Assembly: GCA_964653055.1 (NCBI GenBank)
Contig: CAZZCA010000006.1
Coordinates: 2,427 to 66,426, forward strand
Length of the DNA stretch: 64,000 bases
Direction: 5' to 3'
Source: an uncultured Desulfobulbia bacterium
Lineage (GTDB): Bacteria > Desulfobacterota > Desulfobulbia > Desulfobulbales > SURF-16
Shown here: positions 18,505 to 58,792 of the stretch, in pieces
How positions within the stretch are numbered: the stretch's first letter is position 1
Layout of the letters: each line of letters begins with the position of its first letter
The notes under the pieces: model-generated
What the model was told of the DNA's origin: nothing
Database searches by the model: none
What the model saw: the letters and a program-made list of their open reading frames with translations, nothing else
Program-made: the position numbers and the translations under genes

Positions 18505-18520
18505 ATTTTTCTTCTTTATT

Positions 18521-18602
18521 GGCTTTTTCCGTGGTTAACCCGCTGTAATAGCCTAATGCCAGGTGAGTCATAACGATAATCTTTCTGGAACGGCATAAGT
18601 CA

Positions 18603-18604
<2 letters not shown>
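18521..18604. repeat. Intergenic element, copy A (gyrB-gyrA spacer)
   Basis: The left arm GGCTTTTTCCGTGGT and right arm ACGATAATCTTTCTGGAACGGCATAAGTCACT match copy B at 28856-28988. The 19-nt core TTTCTGGAACGGCATAAGT is identical. The two arms are partly complementary (10 of 12 positions pair, counting one G-U). Confidence 0.7.
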
Positions 18605-21047
<2,443 letters not shown>

Positions 21048-21051
21048 TTAT

Positions 21052-22173: not shown

Positions 22174-22477
22174 AAAAATACCTTCTGTGTTTTAAGATTT
22201 TTTTAATAAATTATTTTTTTATCTTCTTTTTATTTTTATTAAAGCTGTTAGTTTGTTTATAAGTAATATAACTATCTGATATGATTCTGTTTTTTTTAGA
22301 CAGATGTATGTTCTTAATTTCTTGTTTAGTTGGTTTTTTCTGTTTTCAACAGGTTTATAACAACGGGTTTTTAAAACATGTGTTAAAAATGATATTTTCA
22401 ACCTAATATCAAGTAGCAAGAATACTTTAAAAAGAAAAAAAAAACAATAAGATAATCAACATTAAAAGGCTCTGTAA
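22174..22477. other. 304-bp very AT-rich intergenic region upstream of dnaN (promoter region; possible origin-proximal DNA)
   Basis: Hand count of line 22201-22260 gives 7 G+C out of 60. Runs of A10 (22435-22444) and T8 are present, and TTTTCAAC occurs twice. It sits at a local switch of coding strand. I found no DnaA box with one mismatch or fewer. Confidence 0.3.
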
Positions 22478-23599
22478 GTGTCAGAAAAAAAAGAAAATTT
22501 TTCCTTTGAACCAGGCTTTGTTGAAGACCTGGATTCTTTACTTGTCCATGGAATAAATAATGATGTTTTTTCCGGGGTATGTGCCGGGGTATCCAGGTAT
22601 GAAAATGGCCTCTGGCATAATATAAATAAAAATAAGGGAAAAAACGGCCCTGCTGGCGCAAAAATAGATAAATATACTCTGATAGACCTGGCATCTCTTA
22701 CTAAGCCCCTGGCCACCACCCTGGCAATTATAAATTTGATTACGGAAAAAAGGATAAGCCTGAATGATTTTCTGGGTGATCTTTTAGTATCATCTAACCC
22801 TGCCCATAAAAAAATTAAAATATCTCATCTTTTAAATCATTGTTCAGGCCTGCCAGCCCATGCTGATTATTATAAAAAACTCATTTACCTGCCCCTTAAC
22901 GAAAGAAAAGAGGCCTTGTTTGATATGGTTGTTTCGGAAAAACCACTGGCCAGTGCGGGTGAAAAAGAAATTTACAGTGACATTGGTTTTATTCTGCTGG
23001 CAATGGTTGTGGAAAAATTTGGAGAGATGGCTCTTGATAGGTTTATCCGTAAAAAGGTAATGGAGCCCATTGGTTATGCTGATAAAATATTATTCAACCC
23101 ACCAGGGGATGATCATGATTTTCTGGTAACAGGCAGGTGTCTGTGGCAGGATAAAGAATTGGCCGGAGAGGTTCATGATGACAACACCAGGGCAATTGGA
23201 GGGGTAAGTGGTCAGGCCGGGTTGTTTGCTCCGGTAACGGCAGTTATGGGCCTTTGTGCGTATCTTCTCGATATGGTGAAGGGGCGGAAAACCCATCCCT
23301 TTATCGATGGGAACCTGCTGGCTGAGTTCTGGCAGCGGCAAGACATGGTAAAGGGCAGCAGTTGGGCCCTTGGATTTGATACCCCCTCTGCTGGTTATTC
23401 TTCAGCTGGTGATTACCTAAGTGAAAAAAGTGTGGGTCATCTCGGTTTTACCGGAACCTCTTTCTGGATAGACCCCACCAGGGAACTGGTAATGGTTCTA
23501 CTGACCAACCGGGTTCTTGGGGGTCGGAAAAATAATAAGATAAAAGATTACCGGCCCCTGTTTCACAATACTATTTTTAAGTCTCTTGGCCTGAATTGA
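22478..23599 (+). CDS. Serine hydrolase (beta-lactamase / PBP4*-like family)
   Basis: 373 aa with a GTG start. The SxxK motif lies in DLASLTKPLATTLAI, with a YSD/YxN-like IYSDIGF and HLGFTGTSFWIDP (the [KH]-[ST]-G box). Confidence 0.8.
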   Translation: MSEKKENFSFEPGFVEDLDSLLVHGINNDVFSGVCAGVSRYENGLWHNINKNKGKNGPAGAKIDKYTLIDLASLTKPLATTLAIINLITEKRISLNDFLGDLLVSSNPAHKKIKISHLLNHCSGLPAHADYYKKLIYLPLNERKEALFDMVVSEKPLASAGEKEIYSDIGFILLAMVVEKFGEMALDRFIRKKVMEPIGYADKILFNPPGDDHDFLVTGRCLWQDKELAGEVHDDNTRAIGGVSGQAGLFAPVTAVMGLCAYLLDMVKGRKTHPFIDGNLLAEFWQRQDMVKGSSWALGFDTPSAGYSSAGDYLSEKSVGHLGFTGTSFWIDPTRELVMVLLTNRVLGGRKNNKIKDYRPLFHNTIFKSLGLN

Positions 23600-24704
23600 C
23601 TCCCTTTTTTTCGGGAAACATATCAAGAATGGCATCTCTATTGGGGGCAACCACCCCTCTTTCCGTGATCAGACCGCTTATCAGGCGGGCAGGGGTTACA
23701 TCAAACCCGTAATTTGCCGCATTGGTATGGTCCGGAGAAATCTGGACGGTTTCCAGTCGATTGTCATCGGTTATTCCCGATATCTTCAAGACCTCTTCCG
23801 CTGATCTCTGTTCGATGGGGATGGTAAGGCCATCTTCAATCTGCCAGTCAAAGGTTGAAGAGGGCAGAGCTACATAAAAGGGAATTTTATTGTCAAAGGC
23901 GGCCAGGGCTTTCAGGTAGGTTCCTATTTTATTGGCCACATCTCCGGTAAAAGTGGTGCGATCGGTGCCGACAATTACCAGGTCAACCTTACCGTGCTGC
24001 ATCAGGTGGCCGCCGGTATTATCCGAAATAAGGGTGTGTGCTACCCCTTCCTCTTTAAGCTCCCAGGTGGTTAATTTGGCCCCCTGCAGCCATGGTCTGG
24101 TTTCATCCACCCAGACATGAACCTTAACCCCTGCATGGTGGGCGGCATAAACAGGGGCGGTGGCGGATCCGTAATCAACAAAGGCCAGCCAGCCGGCATT
24201 ACAGTGGGTAAGGATATTTACCGGTTTTCCGTTTTTGCTCTCTGATATTTTTTTGATCAGCTCAAGACCGTGCTGGCCGATTTTTTTACAGAAGCTGGCG
24301 TCCTCGTCAGCAATGGCGCAGGCTGTGGCAAAAGATGTTTTAATTTTGTCATTAATTGATTCTGCCCCGGCCATGGCTGTTAATTGACGGTCTATGGCCC
24401 AGGAAAGGTTTTTGGCAGTTGGTCTGGTTGAGCGGATCTGATCGGCATATTTCTGGATGTCAGAATCAAAGTTTTTAGTTGAGGCGGCAAGGCTTGCCCG
24501 GAACATGGCAAAGCCGGCAGTTGCCCCGATGAGGCCGGCGCCCCGGACATGCATCTCGGAAATTGCCAGGGCAAAGTCGTTAACTTCGGCAAGATCCTCT
24601 ATAATAAACCTGTGGGGAAGGTGACGCTGGTCGATGATCTGGATGATCTCCTGGTTTTCAGGGTCGGGCCAGATGGTACGATAATGTTTGTTGTTGATGA
24701 GCAT
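23577..24704 (-). CDS. mtnA: S-methyl-5-thioribose-1-phosphate isomerase (eIF-2B alpha/beta/delta-like family)
   Basis: MLINNKHYRTIWPDPENQEIIQIIDQRHLPHRFIIEDL..., VIVGTDRTTFTGDVANKIGTY. I chose the start at M12 of the listed ORF. The 3' end overlaps the convergent serine-hydrolase gene by 23 nt. Confidence 0.8.
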   Translation of the reverse strand: MLINNKHYRTIWPDPENQEIIQIIDQRHLPHRFIIEDLAEVNDFALAISEMHVRGAGLIGATAGFAMFRASLAASTKNFDSDIQKYADQIRSTRPTAKNLSWAIDRQLTAMAGAESINDKIKTSFATACAIADEDASFCKKIGQHGLELIKKISESKNGKPVNILTHCNAGWLAFVDYGSATAPVYAAHHAGVKVHVWVDETRPWLQGAKLTTWELKEEGVAHTLISDNTGGHLMQHGKVDLVIVGTDRTTFTGDVANKIGTYLKALAAFDNKIPFYVALPSSTFDWQIEDGLTIPIEQRSAEEVLKISGITDDNRLETVQISPDHTNAANYGFDVTPARLISGLITERGVVAPNRDAILDMFPEKKGVNSGQET

Positions 24705-35508: not shown

Positions 35509-36672
35509 ATGGAAAAGAAATCTCTGCGAGACCTTCATTTTCTGGTGGCCGGCGGCCATGATTCCATGCGCCAGTCCATAATTTCCATGCTTAAGCTCAT
35601 TGGCTTTGGTGATGAAATTATTGAAGCGGAAAGTGGCAATGAGGCCTGGAAGCACCTGGGCCGTGGGTTGAGCGACATTGACTTCATTATCTCTGCAGCC
35701 GATATGGAAGAAGGTGATGGGGTTGAGCTCCTGCAACGGGTTCGCAACGATAAGATTGTCCGGGACATTGTTTTTCTGCTGGTCAGCTCTGAAATCAGCC
35801 TGGAGCTGGTGGCAGAGGCTGCGGAGTATGATGTTGACGGTTGTCTTGCCATCCCCTGCTCACCTGATTCCCTGGAACGAAAGATTGAGTCTCTCTGGCA
35901 TAAGGCCTGGAACCCTGATCCCATGACCATGCATCTGCGGCTGGCCCGGGAGCAGGAGGAACGGGGTAATCTGGTCGGAGCAATTGACCAGACCCAGCTT
36001 GCCATTGCCGCTAACTTAGAATCATCCCGTCCCCTGCGGGAACAGGGACGACTTTATTTGAAGCTGGACAGCCCTGATCAGGCCCTTGCCTCCTTCCAGG
36101 GAGCGGTTTCCCTCAACCAGCTTGATGTCGGTGCCCACCATAATCTGGGCATGATCCATTTTAATCGGGGCCAGGTTAACCGGGCCATGGTTCATTTCGG
36201 CCGGGCCATGGCCATCAGCCCCCGGGACGCCCAGCGCTCTTATTATTACGGATGTATCCTGTTGCAGCGGCAGCAAAAGGACGAGGCCCGGGATGTCCTG
36301 GCCTCTCTCTACCGTAATCATCAGGAAAATATTGAGTTAATGACCAGGGTGGGGGTTGTGGCCGAAGAAAATGGCCTGAACGATCTGGCAATCAAGTGTT
36401 TTCGTCATGTGCTGGAGAGAAAGCCCAATGAGCTGTTGATCCATAAAAAACTGGGGATTCTCTTGCAGGAGGAGGGGAATAGCCTGGAGGCGGTTACCCA
36501 CCTGGAAACAGCAGCGGTGAAGTATGGCAGGGAGCTTGACCTGCTTCTTGCCATGGCCCGGGCCTGTCTGGTCATGGATCGTTTTGAACAGGCCCATGTC
36601 TGGGCAGACAGGGCCAAAGATCTCTTCCCCACTGAAACCGAGGTCAGGAAGATTCTTCTCCAGTGCCGATAG
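35509..36672 (+). CDS. Degenerate receiver (pseudo-REC) domain fused to TPR repeats
   Basis: 387 aa. The N-terminal ~125 aa show a CheY-like fold pattern, but DD is replaced by GG ([11 protein letters not shown]), the acceptor position is Ala ([12 protein letters not shown]) and the conserved Lys is Ile (LAIPC). The C-terminal ~250 aa are TPR-like. Confidence 0.7.
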
Positions 36673-37721: not shown

Positions 37722-39680
37722 ATGGTTAAGAAACTTTCAGTTTTGGCCCTGGCCGGGCTCATTGCCCTGCCGTCAGTGGCTGGCGCCGGTGGTGGTGAAA
37801 ATCTTGCCACCAAGATTGACCAGCTGGAAAAACAGATACAGGCCCTTAAGTCCCAGATGAAGAGTATGCAGGCGGACCAGGAAGAGGCTTTTGAGGAGTT
37901 GGAGGAGAAATCCGAGGCCTGGGACAGTGCTGCCCGCTTCAAGTTCTCCGGCGATTTCCGGGCCAGGGCTGATTATAATAGCGCTGATGTGCCCATTTAT
38001 TATAAGGCCTCTACAGTGTCTGAAGGTGTAAATTGGTTTGTTGATCCCAATGCGACACTGGGGACTGCATTTGGTGGTGACCCTACTCAGAATGTCTTTA
38101 ATCAGGCAGGTTCCATGGGCGAGTCTAATGGTGCCTGGGGCCTATTGTTTGGTTTTATGGGAGGTGATAATCCCATGGGTGGAGAACCCCATAATATTGC
38201 TGCCAGAATGGGGGCTGATCAGATAATTGGCTCGGTTTTATATGGTGATCCTGCAGCTTATGATTTTGCTGGTGGTGGTGTTCAGCCTGGGGCGGTTCTC
38301 CAGTCTCCTGACCAGCGCACTCAGGCCTTAGTTGGGGTTATGAAAGGTTTTACCCCTGCAGAGCGGGGAATGCTGTTTGGTATGATGGGCTTTTCCCCTG
38401 AGACGGCAGAGACCTATGATAATGACACCCTATATACCAATCGGATGCGCCTCAATATGCGGGTTAAGGCCACTGAGAATGTAGAGTTCAAGGGGCGGCT
38501 GGCCATGTATAAGGCCTGGGGGATGCAGAATAACCCGGTTGATTATACCCTGATGGGTGGTCCTTCCTTTCTCTCTTCCGCCATGACCGGTTTTGACGGG
38601 GCAACCACCCGTCAGCCCAGTGATTCGGTACTCCGGGTTGACCGGGCCTTTGTTAACTGGAATAATATCGGTGGCCTGCCCATGTGGTTTTCCATCGGCC
38701 GCCGGCCCACCTCTGATGGTCCTCCTGCCCAGCTTCGCCTGGGAGCCGATAAGCGGATGGCCACCCCGGTGAATTATATGGATTACCCCTTTGACGGGCT
38801 CTCCCTTGGTTATGCCTATTCCGATCTTCTCGGAATGGGGGGAACCGGCCGGGTTCGTTTCTGTTATGGTCGTGGTTTTGATTCCGGCCCCACTGATAAT
38901 GGTGACGGGTTGAATGACACTGATTTTGCCGGCATCAACTGGGATGTTTATAAAAAGGGTGATCGTTTCCTTAATATCCAGTCCTTTGGCGCCTTTGAGA
39001 TCTTCAATGTGCCGGACGGGATGACTTTTACCAACCCGCTTGAGCAGGCTTTTATTGCCAGTGGTGACCTGCAGGATGGAAATCCTGATGTAGCCGATTA
39101 TGCCAATGGTTTTCTCGATCGGGAGAATATGGGTAATATCTTCCATACCAGTGCCGTTTTCATGGATAAACATGAAAACCTTAATTATTTTCTGGCAGCG
39201 GGCTGGAGTCGCACTGATCCCGACAGTCAGGATGAATTAGGTACAGGCCTTCTGTCCAGCTGGTGGGATGCGGACTATACCGACAATAAAGACGGCCATT
39301 CCATTTATGCCGGACTTCGCCTTGATCACGATGATCTGGGGATGAAGTTTGGTCTGGAATATAATTACGGTTCCGAGAACTGGCTGGCCTTTGCCCCGGG
39401 TCATGACGACATGTACCAGTCCAAGCTGGCCACCCGTGGTCATGTCTATGAGATGTATATGATTTATGACCTGCCGGTGGGCGAGGCTATCTCCAAATAC
39501 GGTAAGGCCTTTATGCGCCTTGGCTGGCAGCATTATAAATATGAGTACACCGGCAGTGGTATGTGGCTGGGTGCGCCGGTTAAGATCGATGACCTGGCTG
39601 TTGATCCTATGGCGGCCCAGTTTTATGCCCCCACTGACAAGATGGATAATGTCTATCTGACCTTTGAGGCATTTTTCTAA
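37722..39680 (+). CDS. Outer-membrane beta-barrel protein with an N-terminal coiled coil (DUF3373-like putative porin)
   Basis: 652 aa with a strong SD (AAGGAGAAAGGAAG). Signal peptide MVKKLSVLALAGLIALPSVAGA, then a coiled coil (KIDQLEKQIQALKSQMKSMQADQEEAFEELEEK), then alternating beta-strand patterns, ending ...YLTFEAFF with the terminal Phe typical of OMPs. The family assignment is from memory. Confidence 0.6.
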   Translation: MVKKLSVLALAGLIALPSVAGAGGGENLATKIDQLEKQIQALKSQMKSMQADQEEAFEELEEKSEAWDSAARFKFSGDFRARADYNSADVPIYYKASTVSEGVNWFVDPNATLGTAFGGDPTQNVFNQAGSMGESNGAWGLLFGFMGGDNPMGGEPHNIAARMGADQIIGSVLYGDPAAYDFAGGGVQPGAVLQSPDQRTQALVGVMKGFTPAERGMLFGMMGFSPETAETYDNDTLYTNRMRLNMRVKATENVEFKGRLAMYKAWGMQNNPVDYTLMGGPSFLSSAMTGFDGATTRQPSDSVLRVDRAFVNWNNIGGLPMWFSIGRRPTSDGPPAQLRLGADKRMATPVNYMDYPFDGLSLGYAYSDLLGMGGTGRVRFCYGRGFDSGPTDNGDGLNDTDFAGINWDVYKKGDRFLNIQSFGAFEIFNVPDGMTFTNPLEQAFIASGDLQDGNPDVADYANGFLDRENMGNIFHTSAVFMDKHENLNYFLAAGWSRTDPDSQDELGTGLLSSWWDADYTDNKDGHSIYAGLRLDHDDLGMKFGLEYNYGSENWLAFAPGHDDMYQSKLATRGHVYEMYMIYDLPVGEAISKYGKAFMRLGWQHYKYEYTGSGMWLGAPVKIDDLAVDPMAAQFYAPTDKMDNVYLTFEAFF

Positions 39681-45544: not shown

Positions 45545-47206
45545 TTACAGAATTACCGGTCGCAGCAGGATGATCAACTCCTTGCGATAGGCATTGGTTC
45601 CCTTCTGCCCGAATAATCTGTCTACCCCTTTTAGATCGCCAAGACCGGCAACCTTGGCTTCGGCGTAATCATTGCTGCTGTCAATGAGCCCGCCGACAAT
45701 CAGCATCTCGCCGTTGTTAATCCTCACCATGGTGGTCATCTCCCGGATGGCCACTTTGGGGAGGCCAACCTCACTGCTGCCCCCGGTTCCGGTGAAGGTC
45801 TTATAGTCAATAGGGGTCTTGACCTTGGATGTCACCGGGGTCAGGGTCAATACCACCTGGTCGTCGTCCATAATGGTGGCAATCACCCCCATCCCCAGCC
45901 CGGACATAACCGACGAAGTTTCAATACTGTAGGTTACCACCCCTTCTTCCTGGCTGGCGGTAACCTTATCGATATAGGTCATATTCTCTCCCACCGAGAT
46001 CATGGCGGGCTGGCCGTTCATCACGCTTATTTTGGGATTGGCCAGGACCTCAACATGGCCCTGTTCCTTAATGGCGTCCAGAACCAGGCCGAAATTATGG
46101 GTATTGAGGGTAAGAAATTTGTTCTGGGTACCGGTACTGTGGTGCAGGGGGTTAAGCTTCTGGAAGTCCAGGCTGAAGTTAAGGGCATTTCCCGTATTCT
46201 GCAGCAGGTTTTCCCAGTCAATGCCGGTGGTATTGTCATGGCTTAAAGTAACCTCAACGATCTTGGCCTCAATGGAGACCTGGCGGTAGAGCTCTTTTTT
46301 CAGGTTCTCCACATAGCTGGTTACCTTGGACAGCAGGGAGCGGGGAGCGGTAACCGTGATCAGGCCGATGGGCCGGTCAATGGTATAATACCCCTTGCCC
46401 GGGGTGCGGACAATTATCGGGGTGGCTGCTTCGTCTTCCTCCTGGCTACCCTCAGCGCCTGCCTGGTCATTGCTTTCCGGGCTGCTCCAGATCTCCAGGA
46501 TCAGGTCAAGGTTGGTACGGATATTGGACCAGATATCAAAGGAGTTCTCGTCTACCTGGGTATTGGTTATCTGGATGGTGCCGGTCATTTCATGGTCTGT
46601 GCCACCGGTTCCCCCCAGGACATCGCCACCAACCCCGGAGCTGAAAGAAGGCGCCATAAAGGGCATGGCGATATGGAACCGCCTGGTTTCCTTATGCTTG
46701 ATGATGATGGTATTGTCTTTGGTCTCGAAAAAATAATCCAGCTGCCGCAGCAGGTTGTCTATGGCGGCAAAGAAATCGTCTTCCGCCCGGATATCCACAT
46801 CCACCAGGGCTGCCTGATTGGCATCGCTTGCCCAGCTCACGTTCATTTTCTTTAATTGGGCCAGCTTCTTCATGATCTCCCGCAGGGTAACCGGGCCGCT
46901 GGTGGTGGAAATGTCAGCACCAACCGGAATAACCAGGTCGCTACGGTGCCCCAGGGGTTCGGTCTGGTCCAGGAGCAGGGTGGGTTGCTGAAAACGAAGG
47001 GGCAGACGATCGGTGGCGGTTTTCTTGGCAGCGGCTGGTTGACTGCTGCCGGTGTGTTTTGCCAGGAAATCCTGACCAGCCATGCTGTTGTCCAGATTAG
47101 GGTCTCCTGATCTGGCGCAGGCACTGACCAGAAAAACCAGAAACAGGGCGGCCATGGTATGCCAGTTTGGTCCTATTTTCAGGATGGAGATTAATTTTGT
47201 GTTCAT
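45545..47206 (-). CDS. Secretin-family lipoprotein (MshL/PilQ-like) with no AMIN domain
   Basis: 553 aa with a lipobox in FLVFLVSAC. It has an N0-like domain (VTLREIMKKLAQLKKMNVSWASD...NTIIIKHKE), an N1/secretin core (VSIEAKIVEVTLSHDNTTGIDWENLL ... GLPKVAIREMTTMVRINNGEMLIVGGLI) and the C-terminal KELIILLRPVIL. Confidence 0.8.
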   Translation of the reverse strand: MNTKLISILKIGPNWHTMAALFLVFLVSACARSGDPNLDNSMAGQDFLAKHTGSSQPAAAKKTATDRLPLRFQQPTLLLDQTEPLGHRSDLVIPVGADISTTSGPVTLREIMKKLAQLKKMNVSWASDANQAALVDVDIRAEDDFFAAIDNLLRQLDYFFETKDNTIIIKHKETRRFHIAMPFMAPSFSSGVGGDVLGGTGGTDHEMTGTIQITNTQVDENSFDIWSNIRTNLDLILEIWSSPESNDQAGAEGSQEEDEAATPIIVRTPGKGYYTIDRPIGLITVTAPRSLLSKVTSYVENLKKELYRQVSIEAKIVEVTLSHDNTTGIDWENLLQNTGNALNFSLDFQKLNPLHHSTGTQNKFLTLNTHNFGLVLDAIKEQGHVEVLANPKISVMNGQPAMISVGENMTYIDKVTASQEEGVVTYSIETSSVMSGLGMGVIATIMDDDQVVLTLTPVTSKVKTPIDYKTFTGTGGSSEVGLPKVAIREMTTMVRINNGEMLIVGGLIDSSNDYAEAKVAGLGDLKGVDRLFGQKGTNAYRKELIILLRPVIL

Positions 47207-47235
47207 GGGCAGATCCTTTACCGGCAGGTGCCGGC

Positions 47236-48732
47236 TTATTGGGGCCTATTGTTGATATATGTCTGCAGATCATCGGGGATATCGTAGCCGGACAGGAGAA
47301 TGGCCCGGTATTCACGGTTGGCCGATTCTTTATTGCCGGTAAGATCGTATATCCGAGCCTTGCTCACCATGGTTTCCAGGGAGCTGGCATAAAGAGATTC
47401 GTAGCGGATTAATAGATTAAGGGCCATCTCATGGCTTTTATTCTGCTCGCAGAAGGCGGCGTAGGCGGCCAGGGCCTGCCGGGCTGGTCGATTAATGCTG
47501 GTGGCCAGTTCAAAATAATCCCGGGCCTCTGCCAGTTTTTCCATATTGGCCAGACTGACGGCGGTGTGGAGGGCAACCCTGCTGTTGTTGCCAATGAGCA
47601 GTTGACAGGCGATTTTGCCATAATGGGCGGCCTTGGCGAATTGACCGAGGTGAAGGAGGCAGACTGATGTTATTTTTTCGGCCAGAGCGCCGTCAGTTGG
47701 CATCAGCTCAAAGGCCTTTTCGTAAAGAGCCAGGGCAGGGGCGAATTTGCCATTCTTTTCCAGGGTGGAGGCCTGCCGCAGAATTTTACGGGCCTTGATC
47801 TGGTGGCTGCTCACTGCCAGTCGTTCAACCACTGCCAGGGTTTCCTCTTTAACGGTTAATTTCTTTTCTTTCTTCTTGTCCGGCCATTTGAATTTTTTCT
47901 CTTTAGGGGAGATGACAATGGTATTGTATTGCTCTTCCCGGGCCAGGTCTTTCAGGTTGAGGATAATATCGAGGATAAAGTCCCAGGGCACCTCTTTGAG
48001 GGAGAGGGTCAGGGTGCCTTTCACCCCTTCATCAACAACGATATTGCGGCCGCTGATTTCTCCCATGAGCCGGAAGACATTGTGCAGGTCGATTTTATGG
48101 AAATCAACGGATATCTTTTTTTCATGGTACCCGCTGTAGGCCCCTGGTTCTTTGGCTGTTTTTATTTTTTTCTTGCGGCCCAGGGGGGTAAGGCTGGTGG
48201 GTTTTTTGGCCTCAGCCTGGAGGGGCGGGGCCTGGCTTAAGGTCGCCAGTATCTGGTCAAGGGGGGTGTCTGTATCCACCGCAGGCCGGTAAGTCGCCTC
48301 CTTCTGTGGCAACTCTGTCGTATTATTTTGACTGTGGGGGTCAAAGGTGAGGATAATCTTATTATCCTGGTTTGCTTCGGCATAGGTAAAGCCCGGGTCA
48401 AGGGCAATCTCCAGCCGGATGATCTCTGGCTGGATGTCGGCAGGGCGACTTCCCTTGATAAGGCTGACAGGGCTGTTGGACGGGGTCATGGGCAGGGAAA
48501 CATTGCCCAGCCTGCCACCTGCCACATCAATAATAACCCTTCTCGGGGCAAAGAGTTCATAAACCGTATAGGCTGGCGGCTTATTGCCCTGGATTATCAG
48601 TTTTTGTTCCGGTTGCTGCCAGTTGATTTCTTCAATGATAAAGCCGGTGGAATTTGTCTCGTTGCCGGCCTGGCAGAGGTCGGCCGGACTGGCCAGGGCT
48701 ATGGTTAGGAGAATGACGAGGAAGTGATACAT
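47236..48732 (-). CDS. AMIN domain + PilQ-type N0 domain + C-terminal TPR protein
   Basis: 498 aa with a signal peptide. AMIN pattern (IIQGNKPPAYTVYELFAPRRVIIDVAGGRLG ... IIRLEIALDPGFTYAEANQDNKIILTF). PilQ N0 pattern (KISVDFHKIDLHNVFRLMGEISGRNIVVDEGVKGTLTLSLKEVPWDFILDIILNLKDL). A Lys-rich linker and ~170 aa of TPR-like helices follow. Confidence 0.6.
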   Translation of the reverse strand: MYHFLVILLTIALASPADLCQAGNETNSTGFIIEEINWQQPEQKLIIQGNKPPAYTVYELFAPRRVIIDVAGGRLGNVSLPMTPSNSPVSLIKGSRPADIQPEIIRLEIALDPGFTYAEANQDNKIILTFDPHSQNNTTELPQKEATYRPAVDTDTPLDQILATLSQAPPLQAEAKKPTSLTPLGRKKKIKTAKEPGAYSGYHEKKISVDFHKIDLHNVFRLMGEISGRNIVVDEGVKGTLTLSLKEVPWDFILDIILNLKDLAREEQYNTIVISPKEKKFKWPDKKKEKKLTVKEETLAVVERLAVSSHQIKARKILRQASTLEKNGKFAPALALYEKAFELMPTDGALAEKITSVCLLHLGQFAKAAHYGKIACQLLIGNNSRVALHTAVSLANMEKLAEARDYFELATSINRPARQALAAYAAFCEQNKSHEMALNLLIRYESLYASSLETMVSKARIYDLTGNKESANREYRAILLSGYDIPDDLQTYINNRPQ

Positions 48733-48733
48733 A

Positions 48734-49213
48734 TTATTGTTCTCCTTCTTTTTTCAGCAGCATTTTGATCAGGCGGTATTTAGTGCCGCCACTGGCTGTC
48801 CGGTAGCGTTGTCTGAGAATAATGCGGTCGTTTTTAATCTCTTCGATCTGGCCGCTTTTGCCGATCCTGGCTCCCTGGCGGACGATATAGCCCTTACCCA
48901 GAGCATCTTCCACCATGGCAGTGGGGCTCTTTGCCCCGGAAACAATGGCCACCAGAGTCAGCTGACCTGGTTCAAAACGACGAAGCCCGGTGAGAACCTC
49001 CTGCTCCCCTTTACTGACCGCCTCTGTAATAAAGGGTTTAAACGGGTCTGCTCGGCCTTCCCGCCGGTAATGGAAGCTGGACTTTTTATTGAAAAAATCC
49101 AGCAGGCCCTCGATATCAAGGCTCTCCCCGGTTTTTGCCGGCTGATCGCCTCCCTGGCTAACAGCAGGTGTCAGCCAGCAGAGGAGGCAGAGTATGTAAG
49201 ACAGGCGTTTCAT
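48734..49213 (-). CDS. pilP: PilP-like pilus assembly protein
   Basis: 159 aa with a signal peptide, the RADPFKPF motif and a C-terminal beta domain (LTLVAIVSGAKSPTAMVEDALGKGYIVRQGARIG). Its start overlaps the pilO stop by 4 nt. Confidence 0.65.
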   Translation of the reverse strand: MKRLSYILCLLCWLTPAVSQGGDQPAKTGESLDIEGLLDFFNKKSSFHYRREGRADPFKPFITEAVSKGEQEVLTGLRRFEPGQLTLVAIVSGAKSPTAMVEDALGKGYIVRQGARIGKSGQIEEIKNDRIILRQRYRTASGGTKYRLIKMLLKKEGEQ

Positions 49214-49848
49214 TTCCCTTTCTTTTCGTCCTTTGCCGGAGCCGGTTGCTGGCTGAAGCGATAAGTAAGCAGGTTGAAGCTGGTGTTGAGCATAATATCG
49301 TCGCCTTCTTCCGCACTGCCCCCCATCTTGATATTTGCCACAGTGACGATTCGGGGCAATTTGCTGATCTGGTCAAGGAATATACCCACATTGTGATACG
49401 GCCCTCTCACCTTGATATCAACCGGGATCTCGGCATAGAAATCCCGGGCAATTTCCGGCCGGGGAACAAAGGAAAGAAACTCAAGGCCGGAGTTCATCCC
49501 ATGGTCGGAAATGGCAGTGAGCAGGGAGGGGATTTCCTGTTTTTCCGGCAGCAGCCTGGCGGCCTGGGCAAAAAGGTCTCTGGTGGCAGCCATTTCCGCC
49601 TGGTGCTGCTCCAGCATATCGGCAGCTTTACGGATCTTGTTGATATCGGTCTGCAATTTGGCCCTGGTTGTGGAGAGCTGTTGGATTTTGCCTGTTTTCG
49701 GGCCGTAGATCAGAAAATAAAAGGCCAGGCAGGGAATGACCATTACCAGGCCGGCAATGGCGAGTTTATGCTGCCGGGGCAGGGGAATGACCCTTTGCTC
49801 AAGAAAGGTGTTGATAATCTTTCTTATTTTATGCCTGTTGATTTTCAT
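49210..49848 (-). CDS. pilO: PilO-like pilus assembly protein
   Basis: 212 aa. N-terminal TM (LAIAGLVMVIPCLAFYFLIY), a coiled coil, then a ferredoxin-like C-terminal region. Its position between pilN and pilP supports the call. Confidence 0.65.
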   Translation of the reverse strand: MKINRHKIRKIINTFLEQRVIPLPRQHKLAIAGLVMVIPCLAFYFLIYGPKTGKIQQLSTTRAKLQTDINKIRKAADMLEQHQAEMAATRDLFAQAARLLPEKQEIPSLLTAISDHGMNSGLEFLSFVPRPEIARDFYAEIPVDIKVRGPYHNVGIFLDQISKLPRIVTVANIKMGGSAEEGDDIMLNTSFNLLTYRFSQQPAPAKDEKKGK

Positions 49849-49861
49849 AATCTAAATTATC

Positions 49862-50416
49862 TCATTTCCGGCTGGTATTGTCGATGGTAAGGGTCATGGA
49901 AAATGATTTTAATTTATGACCACTCACCTGGGTCATGGCCGATCTGCCCAAAGTAGCCCGGGAGAAACAGGAAGAGGCAGTAAGGGTATCCATGAACTCG
50001 GCCAGCCTGGTATTGTCCATGGCTATGCCGGCAAGAAGCAGAGAGGAGTCAGCCTGCTTCAGGCTGGTGAGCCAGATACTGTCAGCCTTGACTGCATCGG
50101 CAATTTCATCCAGCAGTCGCACCGACAGCTGGGAGTTGGTTTTTAGTTTTTTAATGATGTCGATCTTGGCTGCCAGCTCATTTTGCTCTTTCTCCATGGT
50201 CTTAATCTGGCGGAGAATGGCAGTATAGGAAGCTCGTTTTTTTTTCAGGAGGTCAATGTCGCTGTGCAGGTCGCTGGTGCGCTGGGCCAGAGCCAGGTAG
50301 CCTCCGGCCAGTGAGGCAAGGAGGATGAACAATATCCCCACCAGCAGGGCCAGTTGCCTGCCGGCACGCTGGCGCCGAAGTATCTGTCTGACTGGTAGCA
50401 GGTTGATATGGATCAT
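49862..50416 (-). CDS. pilN: PilN-like pilus assembly protein
   Basis: 184 aa. MIHINLLPVRQILRRQR (the conserved INLLP PilM-binding peptide), a TM segment and a coiled coil. Confidence 0.75.
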   Translation of the reverse strand: MIHINLLPVRQILRRQRAGRQLALLVGILFILLASLAGGYLALAQRTSDLHSDIDLLKKKRASYTAILRQIKTMEKEQNELAAKIDIIKKLKTNSQLSVRLLDEIADAVKADSIWLTSLKQADSSLLLAGIAMDNTRLAEFMDTLTASSCFSRATLGRSAMTQVSGHKLKSFSMTLTIDNTSRK

Positions 50417-50431: not shown

Positions 50432-51556
50432 TTAAAAGGGCGCCGGCCGACTGGCCAGTCCCATGGCAATTGCCATTTCCGGGGCGATATCGTCCAGGTA
50501 TTTCTGGTCAATTCGACCAGGGTCAACCATGCAGGTGGTAAAGGGGTTGAAAATCTCTACCCTGAGGCCGGTCTCCCGGGCCAGGAGCTGGTCCAGGTTT
50601 TTGATTCGGGCACCACCGCCGCTTAGAACAATTTTATCCAGGGCGGATTCAGGGAAATTGGCCTGATGAAAATCCAGGGCTTTCTGGATCTCCATGAGCC
50701 AGGTAATGGCGTTTTCATTAATAATTTCCGCCAGGACCTCCCGGTGTTCGCCGGCCTCTTCTTCCCCTGTTTTAAGTCTTTCGGCAAGGTCAAAATCAAG
50801 GCCGAGGCGGACCTGAATCTCTTCGGTGAGGTGCCGGCCACCCATGGCTGCATCCCGGGCAAAGAGGGAGGAGCCCCGGCTTATGATATTGATACTGATC
50901 TTTTCCGAACCAATGTCCACCAGGGTGATATTTTCATTTGAGCCGAAATTCACCTCATAGCTGTTTTCCAGGGCAAAGGCGTCCACATCCACCAGTACCG
51001 GCTTGAGGTTCAGGTCTTCCAGCATCTGCAGATAACCGTCCACCACCTCTTTTTTGGCTGCTACCAGCATGATATCGGTTCGGCTTTCTGTTTCGGTATT
51101 GGTATGGAGATTGTGGAAGTCCAGATAAACATCATTAATATCAAAGGGGATGTATTGCTCGGCCTCGGAATAGATGTGCTCTTCCAGTTCGGTGTCACCC
51201 ATAACTGCCAGGTTGATCTTTTTGAGAATTACTGAATAGCCGGAAACAGAGATGCCTACTTTCCGGTTTTTTATCTTCAGATTGTTGAGCAGGCTACTAA
51301 TGGCCTCGGCCGCCGTTTCCGGGTCGGCCAATTCGCCATCTTCAATTACTCCGCCGGGCAGCCGGCAGCTGCCGAGACTCTGGAGCTTGAGCTTGTCACC
51401 ACTGGAGTTCATCTCGCAGATCTTGATGGCAAATGAGCCGATATCAAGGCCGATAATCAGCTCGGAAGAGGATGAAAACGGGGTCAGTGACCTTAATAAT
51501 GAATTAATTTTTTCAGTCATAGTTAAATTAAAGAACAAATGGGTATCTTTTGTCAA
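50432..51556 (-). CDS. pilM: PilM-like actin-fold pilus assembly ATPase-like protein
   Basis: 374 aa. IGLDIGSFAIKICEM, LVDIGSEKISINI and VLSGGGARIKNL are actin/FtsA-like blocks. The start is uncertain (TTG 51556 after AAGGAG, or ATG 51520). Confidence 0.8.
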   Translation of the reverse strand: MTKDTHLFFNLTMTEKINSLLRSLTPFSSSSELIIGLDIGSFAIKICEMNSSGDKLKLQSLGSCRLPGGVIEDGELADPETAAEAISSLLNNLKIKNRKVGISVSGYSVILKKINLAVMGDTELEEHIYSEAEQYIPFDINDVYLDFHNLHTNTETESRTDIMLVAAKKEVVDGYLQMLEDLNLKPVLVDVDAFALENSYEVNFGSNENITLVDIGSEKISINIISRGSSLFARDAAMGGRHLTEEIQVRLGLDFDLAERLKTGEEEAGEHREVLAEIINENAITWLMEIQKALDFHQANFPESALDKIVLSGGGARIKNLDQLLARETGLRVEIFNPFTTCMVDPGRIDQKYLDDIAPEMAIAMGLASRPAPF

Positions 51557-54581: not shown

Positions 54582-56879
54582 TTATTGGTCCAGGGTCTGG
54601 CGGATGATCCTGCTGACCTCGTGCAGGCTGAATGGTTTCATGATCATTCCCTTGACCATGCTGCCTCTGATTTTCTCTTCTGTCAGCTCTTTGCTGTAGC
54701 CGGTACAGATCAGGACGGGAATGTCAGCTCGTATCTTCAGCATCTCCTCTGCCATTTCCAGGCCGCTCATTTCCGGCATACTCTGGTCAGTAATAACCAG
54801 GTTGAAGTCATCAGGGTTCTGGCGGAAAAAGGTCAGGGCCTCTTGGGGGTCGGTCATGGCCTTGACCTGGTAGCCCAGGGTGGAGAGCAGCATTTTGCCC
54901 AGGTGGGCAAGTTCGTCTTCATCATCCACCAGCAGGATGCGTTCGCTGCCGGAGCTAATGTTGTTTTGATCAAGGTCCTGGCCAAGTTCTGTTTTCAGCC
55001 GGGGCAGAATAACCTCAAAGGTGGTGCCCATGCCAGGGCTGCTGTCTGCCCTGATCCCACCGGTCATGTTTTCGATAATCCCATGGATCACTGCCAGGCC
55101 CATGCCGCTGCCTTCGCCAATTGTCTTGGTGGTGAAGAATGGGTCAAAGATCCGTTCCATGGTCTGAGGGTCCATTCCCGGTCCGTTATCCTGGACAATT
55201 ATTTTGACATAATAACCAGGTTCCAGGGTAAGGAAGTCTTTTTCCCCCTGGCTCAAGGTATAATTAGACAGGCTGATTCTGATTTCGCCCTTGCTCTCCC
55301 CTATAGCCTCAATAGCGTTGCTGCAGAGGTTCATCAATAATTGATGGATCTGGCTGGGGTCGGCCTGGACATAGGAATCACAGGCCGTAAGCTCACTGTG
55401 AATTCTGATGGCCGCCGGGGTTGAGCTGCGGAGGAATTTGATGTTTTCCTTGATCAGGAGGCCGAGCTGGAGGGGTATCTTATGTTCCTCCCGGTGCCGG
55501 CTGAAGGTGAGAATCTGCTGTACTAGGTCCCTGGCCCGGCCGCCGGCCCGGAGGATTTCGTTTAAGCTGGTAATGGTCGCCTGGTCGTTGGCCGGGCTCA
55601 GTTGTAGTTTGCCCAGTTCGGCATTGCCGATAATGGCGGTCAGCATATTATTAAATTCATGGGCAATGCCGCCGGCCATGGTGCCAATGGCCTCCAGCTT
55701 CTGGCTATGTCTTAATTGGCAGGCCAGTTCTTCTTGTTTTTCCGTGACCAGGTTGCGTTGGTGAATTTCTTCTTCTAATTGGCTGTTGATTTGTATCAGT
55801 TCAGTTGTCTGCTTCCGGACCTTCTCGTCCACTGCCTCCTTGGCCCAGCGAAGCTCCTTATTTGCCGCTGTCAGGTCTTGGTTGAGCCTGCCGATCTGAC
55901 CCAGTAATTTTTTAAAACTGATACGCAGAACCAGCCAGCTGGCGAAAAGGGTGGAAATGGAGATGAGCAGGGTCAGGACGATGAGGGCCCTGGTGTTCTT
56001 TACCGTATTAGTAATATCAAGGGCGGCAATGAGCTGGCCCACGGGTTTTTGCTGGTAATCAAGGAGATTTTCTCCTGAAAAGAAGCAATAATAGCGACCG
56101 TTTATCTTGTGTTGTTGGTTATCCTGCTCCAAGTCGAGGGTTCTGGCCTGGCGGTAAAGGGACAGGTTGGAATTAAAAAGGATGTATTTACCGTAATCAA
56201 GGGTTTTCAACTTATCGACTTTAAGTCTCTTGAATTGATTTTTGTTAATGGCCAGGGCCAGATCCAGTTCAAGGTGGTGGTGAATATCTTCGAGAATCGT
56301 CCGGACATTGATCCCGAACTGGAGAATACCCAGGTACTCGCCATGGTAAAATACCGGCTCAATGACCCGGTACTGGGGGGAGACTATGCCGGTCATAAAG
56401 CCGCTGATTGGTTGCCGGGTGGTATTGGCCAGGGTTACATCGGGCCTGAGCTCCGTAATTTCATCGCCGAATTTTGCCGGACGATGGACCCGAAGAAAGG
56501 CGCGGTTATCAGGGCTTACCCAGTTCATGGTCTGGAAGTTGGGGTTTTCTTTTTTTAAAAGGGTAAAAAAGGGCTGGCATAATTGGAGAAGGAGTTTTCG
56601 GTCCCTTTTCTTAAAGGCATGGAGGATGTCATCCTTGGTGGTGGATGATTTGTAATCAAGAAATCTCTTGATCCGGGAATTATAGTTCTTTTGCATGTTG
56701 CTGATGGTGATCTGGCTCAGGATTATGGCGCTCTGGCGTTGGTTGGCAATGTTCTGCTCCAGAGCTTCCTGTTCGTGTCTGATGAAGAGGCTCAGGAAAA
56801 CAGAGCAGATAAGGGTAAGAATCACCATCATCCAGATTGTTGCCTTGGTGGCTATGGTCATGGTCCTGTCCTTTGCCAT
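54582..56879 (-). CDS. Hybrid sensor histidine kinase (periplasmic Cache-like domain, HisKA, HATPase, REC)
   Basis: Two TMs flank a ~270-aa periplasmic domain. H-box GGIAHEFNNMLTAI, G-boxes DNGPGM/GSGMGL, and a canonical C-terminal REC (LLVDDED...VITDQSMPEMSG...KPF). The start is ATG 56879 or ATG 56861; the latter forms an ATGA overlap with the upstream kinase's stop. Confidence 0.85.
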   Translation of the reverse strand: MAKDRTMTIATKATIWMMVILTLICSVFLSLFIRHEQEALEQNIANQRQSAIILSQITISNMQKNYNSRIKRFLDYKSSTTKDDILHAFKKRDRKLLLQLCQPFFTLLKKENPNFQTMNWVSPDNRAFLRVHRPAKFGDEITELRPDVTLANTTRQPISGFMTGIVSPQYRVIEPVFYHGEYLGILQFGINVRTILEDIHHHLELDLALAINKNQFKRLKVDKLKTLDYGKYILFNSNLSLYRQARTLDLEQDNQQHKINGRYYCFFSGENLLDYQQKPVGQLIAALDITNTVKNTRALIVLTLLISISTLFASWLVLRISFKKLLGQIGRLNQDLTAANKELRWAKEAVDEKVRKQTTELIQINSQLEEEIHQRNLVTEKQEELACQLRHSQKLEAIGTMAGGIAHEFNNMLTAIIGNAELGKLQLSPANDQATITSLNEILRAGGRARDLVQQILTFSRHREEHKIPLQLGLLIKENIKFLRSSTPAAIRIHSELTACDSYVQADPSQIHQLLMNLCSNAIEAIGESKGEIRISLSNYTLSQGEKDFLTLEPGYYVKIIVQDNGPGMDPQTMERIFDPFFTTKTIGEGSGMGLAVIHGIIENMTGGIRADSSPGMGTTFEVILPRLKTELGQDLDQNNISSGSERILLVDDEDELAHLGKMLLSTLGYQVKAMTDPQEALTFFRQNPDDFNLVITDQSMPEMSGLEMAEEMLKIRADIPVLICTGYSKELTEEKIRGSMVKGMIMKPFSLHEVSRIIRQTLDQ

Positions 56880-58792
56880 TGTTCCAGCACTGAGCGGATG
56901 GTGTCTGCCATCTTCTGCAGGCCCAGGGGTTTGGCGAGAAATGCCTTGAAGCCGTGATCCATGGCCTTGGTTTCGTCCCAGTCCTTGACATAGCCGGTGA
57001 GGAGGATGATGGGCATTTCCGGGCAGCATTCCATGATCCGGCCGGCCAGTTCCGAGCCGCTCATCACCGGCATGGCCATGTCGGTGATCACCAGGTCAAA
57101 ATCACCTGGTTCATCGATGATGAGCTCCAGGGCCTTGGTGGCCTCGGTACAACCAGTGGCCCGGTAGCCGAGGAAGGTGAGCATTTTAACCCCCATCTTG
57201 ACCAGGGCCTCTTCATCATCAACCAGCATAATGCGTTCCTGGTTGGGGGCTTTGGCCAGCATGGCCAGGGGGTCTGTTGCTTTGTCGTTGGATTTCTCTT
57301 CAACCAGCACCGGGAAGAAAAGGTGGAAGGATGAGCCTTTACCCTTATCGCTTTCCACCCTGATTCCCCCCTGGTGACGGTCCATGATCTCCTGGGTGAT
57401 GGAGAGGCCCATGCCGCTGCCGTGGCCTTTTTCTTTGCTGGTGAAATATGGCTCGAAGATGTGTTTAATCTCGTTATCGTCCATGCCCCGGCCGTTATCG
57501 GTGATGGTCAGGTGCTGGTAGCGGCCGGCCGGCAGCTCAGGTTTGACGGATTCAGGGGCCAGGTCTTCTTCGATCAAGCTGATCTGGAGACAGCCGTCAG
57601 CTGTTTCCATGGCCTCCACCCCGTTGGTGCAGATGTTCATGAAGGCCTGATGGATGCTGATGGGGTCGGCCATTACCTTGCTCAGAGCCTGGTCAAGCTG
57701 GAGCTGCAGTTCAATGGCCGGCGGCAGGGAGGCCCGGAGAAATTTCATCGCCTCTTTGACCAGATGACGGATCTCCAGGGGGTAACGCTTATGTTCGCTC
57801 TGGGGGCGAAAGGCGGTGATCTGGCTTACAAGGTCCCGGCCCCGGAGGGTGGCGGTGCGAATGGCGCTGAGATGGTCTCGGAGTTCGTGGTCCTTGCTTT
57901 TGATCAGGCCCAGGTCGGAGAAACCGAGGATGGCGGCCAGGATATTGTTAAAATCATGGGCAATACCACCGGCCAGGCTGGCAATAGCCTCAAGGTGCTG
58001 GCTGGCTTCCAGGCGCTCATTGACGGTCTGTTCACCTCGCTTTTGCTGACTATGGAGGGCGATCTGGCGGGTGAGCTGTCGATTGGCCTTGAGTAATTGC
58101 TCGGTTCGTTCCCTGATCTTTTTTTCGAGGTCAATATTGGCGCCCTGGAACTGGTCTTGTTTTTTGGTGAGAAGATGCTGCCAGGCAAAGGAACGCCGCT
58201 GGAGGGACTCAATACAATAGCAGCTGATCAGGCCGATGATATTGGCGGCGAGGACCAGAAAAGAACGGGTTATGAGTTCCAGACCGGTCAGGTTGCCGAT
58301 CTGGATAATGGAGGTGAGATAGATGGTGGTTATGATGAGGCCGCAGCCGGCGGCCCAGATGAGGCGAAGCTGGATAATGGAATAGCCGGCCATGAAAACA
58401 AGGAGCAGGCCGGTGTGATAATACTGCCTGACCGGAGCCGGACCACTTGCTGCCTCCATGATCAAAAGGCCGGCTGTGGCCAGCAGGAAGAGGGCCTCCA
58501 GGGGCTGGCCCAGGCGGGTAAAGGCCCTGGAATAACTGAGGCCATAAACCGAGAAAATGATCAGGGGAAAAAAGAGGAGCTTGAGGAGACAGGTCAGGGT
58601 GCTGGTAATGGGCAGCAGGTTGGGGTCGAGAAGGAGGACGGCAAAATAAAAAAGGCAACCTAAAAGCAGGGTTATTCTGACCTGGGTCAGGGAGTTTTGA
58701 AAATGATGCTGCTGAAACTGCGGTTCCAGGTCAGGATGGTTGAGGAAGGCTAGGGAAATGGGGTGGAGTTTGATCTTCCTGGATTGAGCCAT
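56858..58792 (-). CDS. Hybrid sensor histidine kinase (polytopic membrane N-domain, HisKA, HATPase, REC)
   Basis: 644 aa with ~6 predicted TM helices in the first 200 aa. H-box GGIAHDFNNILAAI, DNGRGM/GSGMGL, and a canonical REC (MLVDDEE...VITDMAMPVMSG...KPL). Confidence 0.85.
   Translation of the reverse strand: MAQSRKIKLHPISLAFLNHPDLEPQFQQHHFQNSLTQVRITLLLGCLFYFAVLLLDPNLLPITSTLTCLLKLLFFPLIIFSVYGLSYSRAFTRLGQPLEALFLLATAGLLIMEAASGPAPVRQYYHTGLLLVFMAGYSIIQLRLIWAAGCGLIITTIYLTSIIQIGNLTGLELITRSFLVLAANIIGLISCYCIESLQRRSFAWQHLLTKKQDQFQGANIDLEKKIRERTEQLLKANRQLTRQIALHSQQKRGEQTVNERLEASQHLEAIASLAGGIAHDFNNILAAILGFSDLGLIKSKDHELRDHLSAIRTATLRGRDLVSQITAFRPQSEHKRYPLEIRHLVKEAMKFLRASLPPAIELQLQLDQALSKVMADPISIHQAFMNICTNGVEAMETADGCLQISLIEEDLAPESVKPELPAGRYQHLTITDNGRGMDDNEIKHIFEPYFTSKEKGHGSGMGLSITQEIMDRHQGGIRVESDKGKGSSFHLFFPVLVEEKSNDKATDPLAMLAKAPNQERIMLVDDEEALVKMGVKMLTFLGYRATGCTEATKALELIIDEPGDFDLVITDMAMPVMSGSELAGRIMECCPEMPIILLTGYVKDWDETKAMDHGFKAFLAKPLGLQKMADTIRSVLEQWQRTGP

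Follow-up and report, generated by a model that had tools for sequence, protein, structure and literature searches.

The stretch of DNA analysed here (the window) comprises 64,000 nucleotides of an uncultured Desulfobulbia bacterium of the order Desulfobulbales (SURF-16; assembly GCA_964653055.1, contig CAZZCA010000006.1, positions 2,427 to 66,426 of the forward strand). The subject is a 498-amino-acid protein encoded on its minus strand (47236–48732) and named ANT in this analysis, for AMIN-N0-TPR (TPR, tetratricopeptide repeat). ANT is a secreted, non-lipidated periplasmic protein in which a PilQ-type N-terminal module (AMIN plus N0) is fused to a TPR domain, and its gene stands directly before that of a lipoprotein secretin. 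The locus consists of six consecutive minus-strand genes:

pilM, 50432–51556, minus strand: 374 amino acids; Pfam PilM_2 at 247.6 bits, and TIGR01175 at 247 bits against a cutoff of 133
pilN, 49862–50416, minus strand: 184 amino acids; Pfam PilN at 60.1 bits
pilO, 49210–49848, minus strand: 212 amino acids; Pfam PilO at 140.5 bits
pilP, 48734–49213, minus strand: 159 amino acids; Pfam PilP at 28.4 bits against a cutoff of 25.6, and T2SSC at 24.3 bits
ANT gene, 47236–48732, minus strand: 498 amino acids; between pilP and the secretin gene
spacer between the ANT and secretin genes, 47207–47235, minus strand: 29 nucleotides, with an AAAGGA ribosome-binding site and a small inverted repeat
secretin gene, 45545–47206, minus strand: 553 amino acids; MshL/BfpB-type lipoprotein secretin

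The products of pilM, pilN, pilO and pilP match type IVa (T4a) pilus models in Pfam and NCBIfam, and the PilP of the operon is, according to Pfam, of the T4a/T2SS-C type (T2SS, type II secretion system). The operon is flanked by housekeeping genes, namely lepB and pyrimidine genes on one side and secB and uvrA on the other; no mshM-like ATPase gene was found beside the secretin gene, where the neighbour is secB. The ATG of ANT, preceded by a GAAGGAG ribosome-binding site, lies 1 nucleotide past the stop codon of pilP, and the two genes are translationally coupled. The reading frame of ANT closes with a clean TAA, and the ATG of the secretin follows 29 nucleotides on. This coupling, together with the short gap to the secretin, fits co-produced subunits. 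The spacer also contains an inverted repeat, GCCGGCA-CC-TGCCGGT, just upstream of the AAAGGA, which could modulate the translation of the secretin.

The ANT protein is composed of the following parts:

signal peptide, 48667–48732, minus strand: approximately residues 1–22, ending ADLCQA before a glycine; without a canonical lipobox, the cleavage site being inferred
AMIN domain, 48334–48645, minus strand: residues 30–133; from Pfam, the AlphaFold2 (AF2) model and alignment to the AMIN domains of Myxococcus xanthus PilQ
PilQ-type N0/STN domain, 47878–48132, minus strand: residues 201–285; from Pfam, the PilQ model and the structure 4ar0
FxWP motif and then Lys-rich linker, 47809–47877, minus strand: residues 286–308, with F281, W283 and P284 just upstream
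TPR domain, 47251–47808, minus strand: residues 309–494, 11 helices; from Pfam (TPR_2, TPR_8 and TPR_1) and AF2

A preliminary description of this DNA, made from its letters, had given the 498-residue protein a signal peptide and one AMIN domain, and both are confirmed. The leader, MYHFLVILLTIALASPADLCQA followed by G, resembles a substrate of signal peptidase I as read from the sequence, and AF2 places a helix at residues 2–13 within it. In homologues the leader ends SVA/A or SLQ/A (the slash marking the cut) with no conserved cysteine, and a search of the ANT leader for a lipobox of the form L-[AS]-[GA]-C found none. Residues 41–113 are assigned by Pfam to AMIN (PF11741, 21.0 bits against a cutoff of 20.5), and residues 30–133 form an eight-strand beta-sandwich in the AF2 model, with a predicted local distance difference test score (pLDDT) of about 90.

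The PilQ-type N0 that had been placed at approximately residues 205–285 is well established by matches to GspD_N0 (PF21305; residues 209–245, 28.0 bits against a cutoff of 27) and STN (PF07660; residues 230–277, 29.4 bits against 28.4), and by the NCBIfam PilQ model (TIGR02515), whose positions 2–107 align to residues 205–310 of ANT with an E-value of 7e-20. Over the whole protein the PilQ score is 71.4 bits, below the curated cutoff of 284.35. When a family profile built from 26 ANT members was searched against all PDB sequences, the best solved match was M. xanthus PilQ (3jc8, E 1.2e-43), running via the AMIN region (31–299) and N0 (465–551), and the isolated N0 domain of Neisseria PilQ (4ar0) was matched with an E-value of 3.7e-17. 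Pfam finds no TcpQ domain (PF10671) in ANT, and neither Secretin (PF00263) nor Secretin_N; the Secretin domain is in the adjoining gene instead. Behind N0, the stretch that had been called a Lys-rich linker is real and of low pLDDT, although it is not linker throughout, since F281, W283 and P284 at its start are invariant across the family.

The TPR-like helices seen after N0 in the preliminary description are also there, over about 190 residues: Pfam TPR_2 matches residues 319–347 (39 bits), and AF2 predicts 11 helices at 309–494 with pLDDT above 90. They had been likened to the pilotins PilF, PilW and Tgl, or to MshN, but a pilotin role is doubtful, given the missing lipobox, the generic character of the repeats and the fact that the secretin is lipidated itself. 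Foldseek returns consensus TPR, YrrB, MamA and OGT, with PilF (2ho1) only at rank 49, behind designed TPRs. ANT scores 17 bits with the PilW model (TIGR02521, cutoff 154), and no pilotin is among the matches listed (60 of 223) for the N0-TPR profile in the PDB. A specific kinship with PilF, PilW, TadD or MshN was rejected on the basis of Foldseek, NCBIfam and PDB profile searches with two alignments, all of which indicate generic TPR only.

The neighbouring secretin has the following parts:

signal peptide with lipobox LVSAC (Cys30), 47117–47206, minus strand: the cysteine is conserved without exception in 26 homologues
tether after the lipid anchor, 46937–47116, minus strand: residues 31–90; conserved helix AQxFLxKHT and invariant L68-P69-x-R71-x-Q73
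divergent N0-like domain of its own, 46667–46936, minus strand: residues 91–180; from AF2, Foldseek, weak Pfam matches and hhalign
N3-type ring domain, 46232–46396, minus strand: residues 271–325; the GspD and PilQ profile matches start here, and AF2 gives a beta-beta-alpha-beta fold
pore domain, 45548–46075, minus strand: residues 378–553; Pfam PF00263 at 107 bits, the protein ending in LRPVIL

The pore is thus encoded, as had been described, by a separate adjoining gene with its own lipobox. The idea of a split PilQ stands only in part: the N-terminal half of ANT is homologous to the N-terminus of PilQ, but the secretin does not make up the rest of that protein. It scores 243.1 bits with the MshL model (TIGR02519, cutoff 250.2), against 111 for GspD, 110 for the PilN-type model of type IVb (T4b) pili (TIGR02520) and 90.8 for PilQ, and some of its homologues are named MshL by NCBI. 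Among the profile matches of the pore, M. xanthus PilQ is one of the poorer (62.7 bits, versus 100 for GspD and 86 for BfpB). The top Foldseek match is BfpB in the BfpB–BfpG complex (9u5s, E 7e-20), and the N0 of PilQ (4ar0, E 4e-3), the N0–N1 of GspD (3ezj) and the GspC–GspD structure 3oss are also matched. The chain stops with the Secretin domain, without a C-terminal S-domain tail. The features of a BfpB-like lipoprotein secretin are therefore all present (lipobox cysteine, tether, N0, N3 and Secretin domains, no S-domain), and the protein is a complete secretin of the MshL/BfpB type, not the C-terminal half of a PilQ. By analogy, its tether would resemble the LG domain, which in BfpB connects the lipid anchor with N0 (PMC12531336).

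A further claim of the preliminary description was that the secretin carries an N0-like domain of its own, for which there is some, rather weak, support. In the AF2 model, residues 91–180 have a pLDDT of 72–84, after a tether (31–90) of low pLDDT and before a largely disordered stretch, the N3-type domain and the barrel. Of 12 homologues, 8 have a weak Pfam match to TcpQ at residues 91–180 (best E 9e-5) and 6 a weak one to STN (best E 1e-3), hhalign aligns the region in register with the N0 of ANT (E 0.008), and a sequence search of the PDB with this N-terminal domain gave nothing significant. As far as its sequence tells, this N0 is a divergent one of the TcpQ/T4b kind.

One genome per species was scanned; relatives of ANT were present in 308 genomes, and the best 80 loci, all from Desulfobulbales-type metagenome-assembled genomes, were compared. 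Wherever the contig reaches, tblastn recovers the order lepB< pilM pilN pilO pilP ANT secretin >, usually with secB and uvrA next, and ANT belongs to the pilMNOP operon of Desulfobulbales as a fixed part. In the window the secretin gene and secB abut, whereas six of these loci (L010, L016, L017, L031, L036 and L062) have 3–5 kb of additional DNA between them. Separateness was counted in 80 loci with both genes (76 from the genome scan, plus L081–L084): the two are separate open reading frames in 80/80, ANT ending at its own stop codon before the secretin. A frameshift between the two frames, against which the earlier description had argued, is thereby excluded. The identical ANT protein was also found on three contigs of the assembly collection and is recorded under JGI, ENA and Logan, and a 178-kb JGI metagenome contig has it with the same neighbours.

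The homologues of ANT number more than 600, and most are 610–630 amino acids long owing to a second AMIN domain. Within the 80 loci the lengths are bimodal (about 490–560 and about 610–750 amino acids), according to whether AMIN is present once or twice. An exhaustive profile search gave approximately 76 clusters (50% identity) of the full-length type and a second tier of proteins of 370–470 amino acids that match the N0-TPR part alone, with N0/STN and TPR and no AMIN detectable by Pfam. This N0-TPR form occurs, for instance, in Dissulfuribacter thermophilus, Thermosulfuriphilus and Desulfatiglans anilini, and the AMIN-less loci of Dissulfuribacter, Thermosulfuriphilus and Desulfatiglans-like bacteria read lepB< pilM pilN pilO pilP [N0-TPR] secretin. 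The secretins beside it score 264.7, 239.7 and 236.3 bits with the MshL model and 111–120 with PilQ; the first value, from Dissulfuribacter, is above the MshL cutoff of 250.2. The N0-TPR form is found, then, in at least three other Thermodesulfobacteriota lineages, always with a complete MshL/BfpB-type lipoprotein secretin next to it. Because the same slot and MshL-type secretins recur in several lineages, the pairing of N0-TPR with such a secretin is old within the Thermodesulfobacteriota. The AMIN domain, described as part of the fusion, is so in Desulfobulbales; elsewhere N0-TPR occurs without a Pfam-detectable AMIN, and the conserved core is N0-TPR, without AMIN.

Some AMIN-less proteins (L083:7001-8371, P0338, P0342 and P0346) have an N-terminal extension with PAR[IL]xVxL/F motifs, suggestive of a degenerate AMIN missed by Pfam, while other N0-TPR proteins carry a short conserved DVxxWxxEL helix in place of the extension. 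Two further proteins, P0322 (998 amino acids) and P0374 (467 amino acids), contain several tandem PilQ-like N0/STN domains; one of them has a partial Secretin match, TPR and DUF2135, and the other FecR_C. In terms of mean pairwise identity within the Desulfobulbales family, no domain of the two proteins is better conserved than the N0 of ANT (0.77), which has many invariant residues, compared with 0.53 for the TPR and 0.42 for AMIN in ANT, and with 0.73 for N3 and 0.65 for the N0-like domain in the secretin. Such conservation fits a domain with several fixed partners.

N0 domains of the PilQ/GspD type are known to dock the homology-region (HR) domain of PilP/GspC, and the known partner of a PilP of the T4a/T2SS-C type is an N0 of the PilQ/GspD type. 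The presence of such a PilP in the operon was counted in favour of its docking to the N0 of ANT, and so was the divergent, TcpQ/T4b character of the N0 in the secretin. The reading that we prefer, at roughly even chances, is that ANT serves the pilus machine as a stoichiometric adaptor in the periplasm, or forms an extra ring there. According to this proposal, the lipid anchor of the secretin would bring it to the outer membrane, where it would form the pore, and the PilQ-type N0 of ANT would be the docking site for the HR domain of PilP, which in canonical machines is on PilQ itself. The closely tethered TPR would hold an extended segment of the secretin, the candidates being the LPxRFQ tether after the lipid anchor and the linker between the N0-like domain and N3, and the flexibly linked AMIN would anchor and position the whole on peptidoglycan. 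A secretin from another clade would in this way receive in trans two functions of PilQ, the anchoring to the wall and the coupling to the inner membrane. In PilQ, the AMIN domains attach to peptidoglycan at septa and poles and bring in the machine (PMC10653833); in RcpA–TadD, extended peptides of the secretin are held in TPR grooves (PMC10499894); and BfpG, which has the N0 fold and is not a lipoprotein, binds the tether of BfpB in a 17:17 arrangement and is essential for assembly (PMC12531336). A broader statement, held more tentatively and at somewhat less than even chances, is that at least four Thermodesulfobacteriota lineages share, in a type IVa-like pilus machine, a two-protein module that would consist of a self-targeting lipoprotein pore of the MshL/BfpB clade and a separate ring-forming subunit whose TPR scaffold carries the ancestral PilQ N0, accompanied or not by AMIN.

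Several points weigh against an adaptor role. Every binding step attributed to ANT is inferred. Its TPR has no specific similarity, by Foldseek or PDB profile, to any secretin-binding TPR, and the N0 is modelled by AF2 with low pLDDT, yet with the expected beta-alpha-beta-beta-alpha-beta pattern; its identity is accepted because of the sequence evidence, not because of AF2 confidence. Since AMIN is absent or degenerate outside Desulfobulbales, wall anchoring is not the core function. The N0-like domain of the secretin could, in addition, dock PilP by itself and make the N0 of ANT redundant there, in which case the latter might be a BfpG-like clamp or an extra ring.

The TPR domain allows ANT to be seen also as a transient pilotin-like chaperone, whose TPR would bind unfolded secretin monomers (e.g., at the beta-lip) and whose N0 would template the ring before the protein leaves. 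TPR proteins such as PilF, PilW, Tgl and TadD do drive secretin multimerisation, and the T4a pilotins have been proposed to bind the unfolded beta-lip transiently (PMC10653833; PMC10499894); weak matches to the PilW model also occur in distant members of the ANT family (E 5e-12, 46 bits). Those pilotins, however, are outer-membrane lipoproteins whereas ANT has no lipobox, the secretin is itself lipidated and lacks the S-domain tail, and the TPR similarity of ANT is generic, with a PilW score far under the cutoff. The conservation of N0 and the translational coupling inside a structural operon suit a permanent subunit better, and on all these grounds a chaperone that departs is unlikely. Another role would be that of a clamp like BfpG or TcpQ, in which the N0 of ANT adds a strand to the tether of the secretin and stabilises its N3/N0, without docking PilP, the TPR and AMIN being add-ons. 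BfpB is indeed the top fold match of the secretin, whose BfpB-like tether has a helix and the invariant LPxRFQ motif, and BfpG and TcpQ are N0-like non-lipoproteins essential for assembly (PMC12531336). Nevertheless, the N0 of ANT is PilQ-type by sequence with no TcpQ match, pilMNOP is a T4a-type and not a T4b operon, and BfpG binds beta-strands of the LG domain, for which AF2 predicts no confident equivalents in this secretin; a role as clamp alone is, in our view, quite unlikely.

The explanation closest to the notion of a split gene is a simple fission, in which a break behind N0 divided an ancestral PilQ whose two products reassemble as an ordinary PilQ. It has in its favour the way in which the PilQ model is divided between the two proteins (positions 2–107 in ANT and 133–427 in the secretin) and the fact that the gene pair occupies the place of pilQ in canonical operons. 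But the pore is closer to MshL than to PilQ (243 versus 91 bits) and has its own signal peptide, lipid anchor, tether of about 60 residues and N0-like domain; ANT has gained a TPR domain of 190 residues; and M. xanthus PilQ comes first among the matches of ANT and near the bottom among those of the pore. Fission in this simple form is improbable, and it is more economical to suppose, from the sequences, that the N-terminal module of PilQ has survived as a protein of its own, fused to a TPR domain, next to a secretin that is both complete and different. An artefact of sequencing or assembly, or a pilQ turned pseudogene, has nothing in its favour except that the two reading frames are neighbours, and its probability is negligible: it is ruled out by the separate frames in 80/80 loci of different species, by the same protein on three contigs, and by the strong conservation of both proteins. 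A stoichiometric adaptor or extra ring remains the preferred reading.

The locus illustrates that the N-terminal module of PilQ can persist, conserved, as a separate protein beside a secretin of another clade. It is a natural experiment that bears on which of the tasks of a secretin (pore, wall anchoring, PilP docking) need to be in one chain, and it extends to a T4a-type operon the idea, recent for type IVb pili, of an N0-fold partner for a lipoprotein secretin. If the two-protein module is real, the PilP-docking ring would be supplied in trans, pore formation would be uncoupled from inner-membrane coupling, and the resulting T4a/MSH/T4b hybrid architecture would fall outside current classifications. 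There are also consequences for annotation. JGI/KEGG-style annotation gives ANT the name 'type IV pilus assembly protein PilQ' and labels the true pore 'GspD / MshL', while NCBI names its homologues 'AMIN domain-containing protein', 'tetratricopeptide repeat protein', 'CDC27 family protein' or 'hypothetical protein'; ANT is not covered by any curated family model. This is a trap through which the pilus and secretion-system inventories of Desulfobulbales, an order that includes the cable bacteria, can be misread.

Near the pilus operon, the window also encodes a 652-amino-acid DUF3373 protein (37722–39680, plus strand), a response-regulator–TPR fusion (35509–36672, plus strand) and two adjacent hybrid histidine kinases (54582–58792, minus strand). 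Farther away, gyrA (15979–18504), gyrB (18603–21002) and dnaN (21052–22173) are all on the minus strand, the GC content drops to 0.38–0.40 at 20–24 kb and the cumulative GC skew reaches its lowest value at about 22 kb. The region 15979–24000 is probably that of the replication origin. No dnaA is adjacent to dnaN, the neighbouring reading frame (22478–23599, plus strand) encoding a beta-lactamase-fold protein, and a DnaA-box scan of the putative origin region found no cluster.

Regarding known systems, a search of the available literature on MshL, PilQ and AMIN yielded nothing on an ANT-type architecture, one on cable bacteria gave no paper, and none of the papers listed for Desulfobulbales mentions pilQ. 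The earlier statement that no equivalent has been described was, even so, too strong. The delta-proteobacterium MLMS-1 is presumably a relative of Desulfurivibrio. It is named in the legend of a figure on domain architectures and operons in the survey by de Souza et al. (2008; PMC2572700), where AMIN+STN+TPR, the domain architecture that ANT has, is listed. This is a catalogue entry only, with no pilMNOP or lipoprotein-secretin operon context, and the guess offered is that of a TPR shell as an outer-membrane transport structure (PMC2572700). A second precedent is that of BfpG and TcpQ, to which we return below.

ANT is not PilQ, it is not a pilotin of the PilF/PilW/Tgl type and, by sequence, it is not a member of the TcpQ/BfpG family. 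With PilQ (M. xanthus 3jc8; Neisseria N0 4ar0) it shares a homologous AMIN and N0 and the position of its gene directly after pilP in pilMNOP; in contrast to PilQ, it lacks N3 and Secretin domains, cannot form a pore and consists of TPR in its C-terminal half. Like PilF, PilW and Tgl of T4a pili, TadD of the Tad system and MshN of the MSHA pilus, it has an all-helical TPR linked genetically or functionally to a secretin. The studied TPR pilotins, however, are outer-membrane lipoproteins without N0 or AMIN, whereas ANT has no lipobox, and TadD binds a C-terminal tail that the secretin beside ANT does not possess. The MSHA operon of Vibrio encodes the mshI, mshJ and mshK forms, and mshM beside the secretin. 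The secretin of the window is near the cutoff of the MshL model, but it is encoded with pilM, pilN, pilO and pilP.

Scaffolds of the GspA/GspB and TsaP type use LysM or PF01471 modules to bind peptidoglycan, whereas ANT uses AMIN. In these systems a separate protein also ties the secretin to the wall and/or the inner-membrane platform, as stated for GspA/GspB (ExeAB, OutB) in PMC9239104 and for TsaP in PMC12531336. OutB binds an N0 through its HR domain, while ANT itself carries the N0. Another parallel in design is that of BfpG/TcpQ with BfpB/TcpC, where likewise a separate, non-lipidated, periplasmic protein of N0 fold stands beside a tethered lipoprotein-type secretin (PMC12531336). BfpG is small and single-domain, without sequence similarity to a secretin N0, whereas the N0 of ANT is PilQ-like and joined to AMIN and TPR; and BfpG and TcpQ belong to type IVb systems, whereas the operon of ANT is otherwise T4a-type (pilMNOP). 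By analogy with both, ANT would work most like the N-terminus of PilQ combined with an in-trans partner of the BfpG type.

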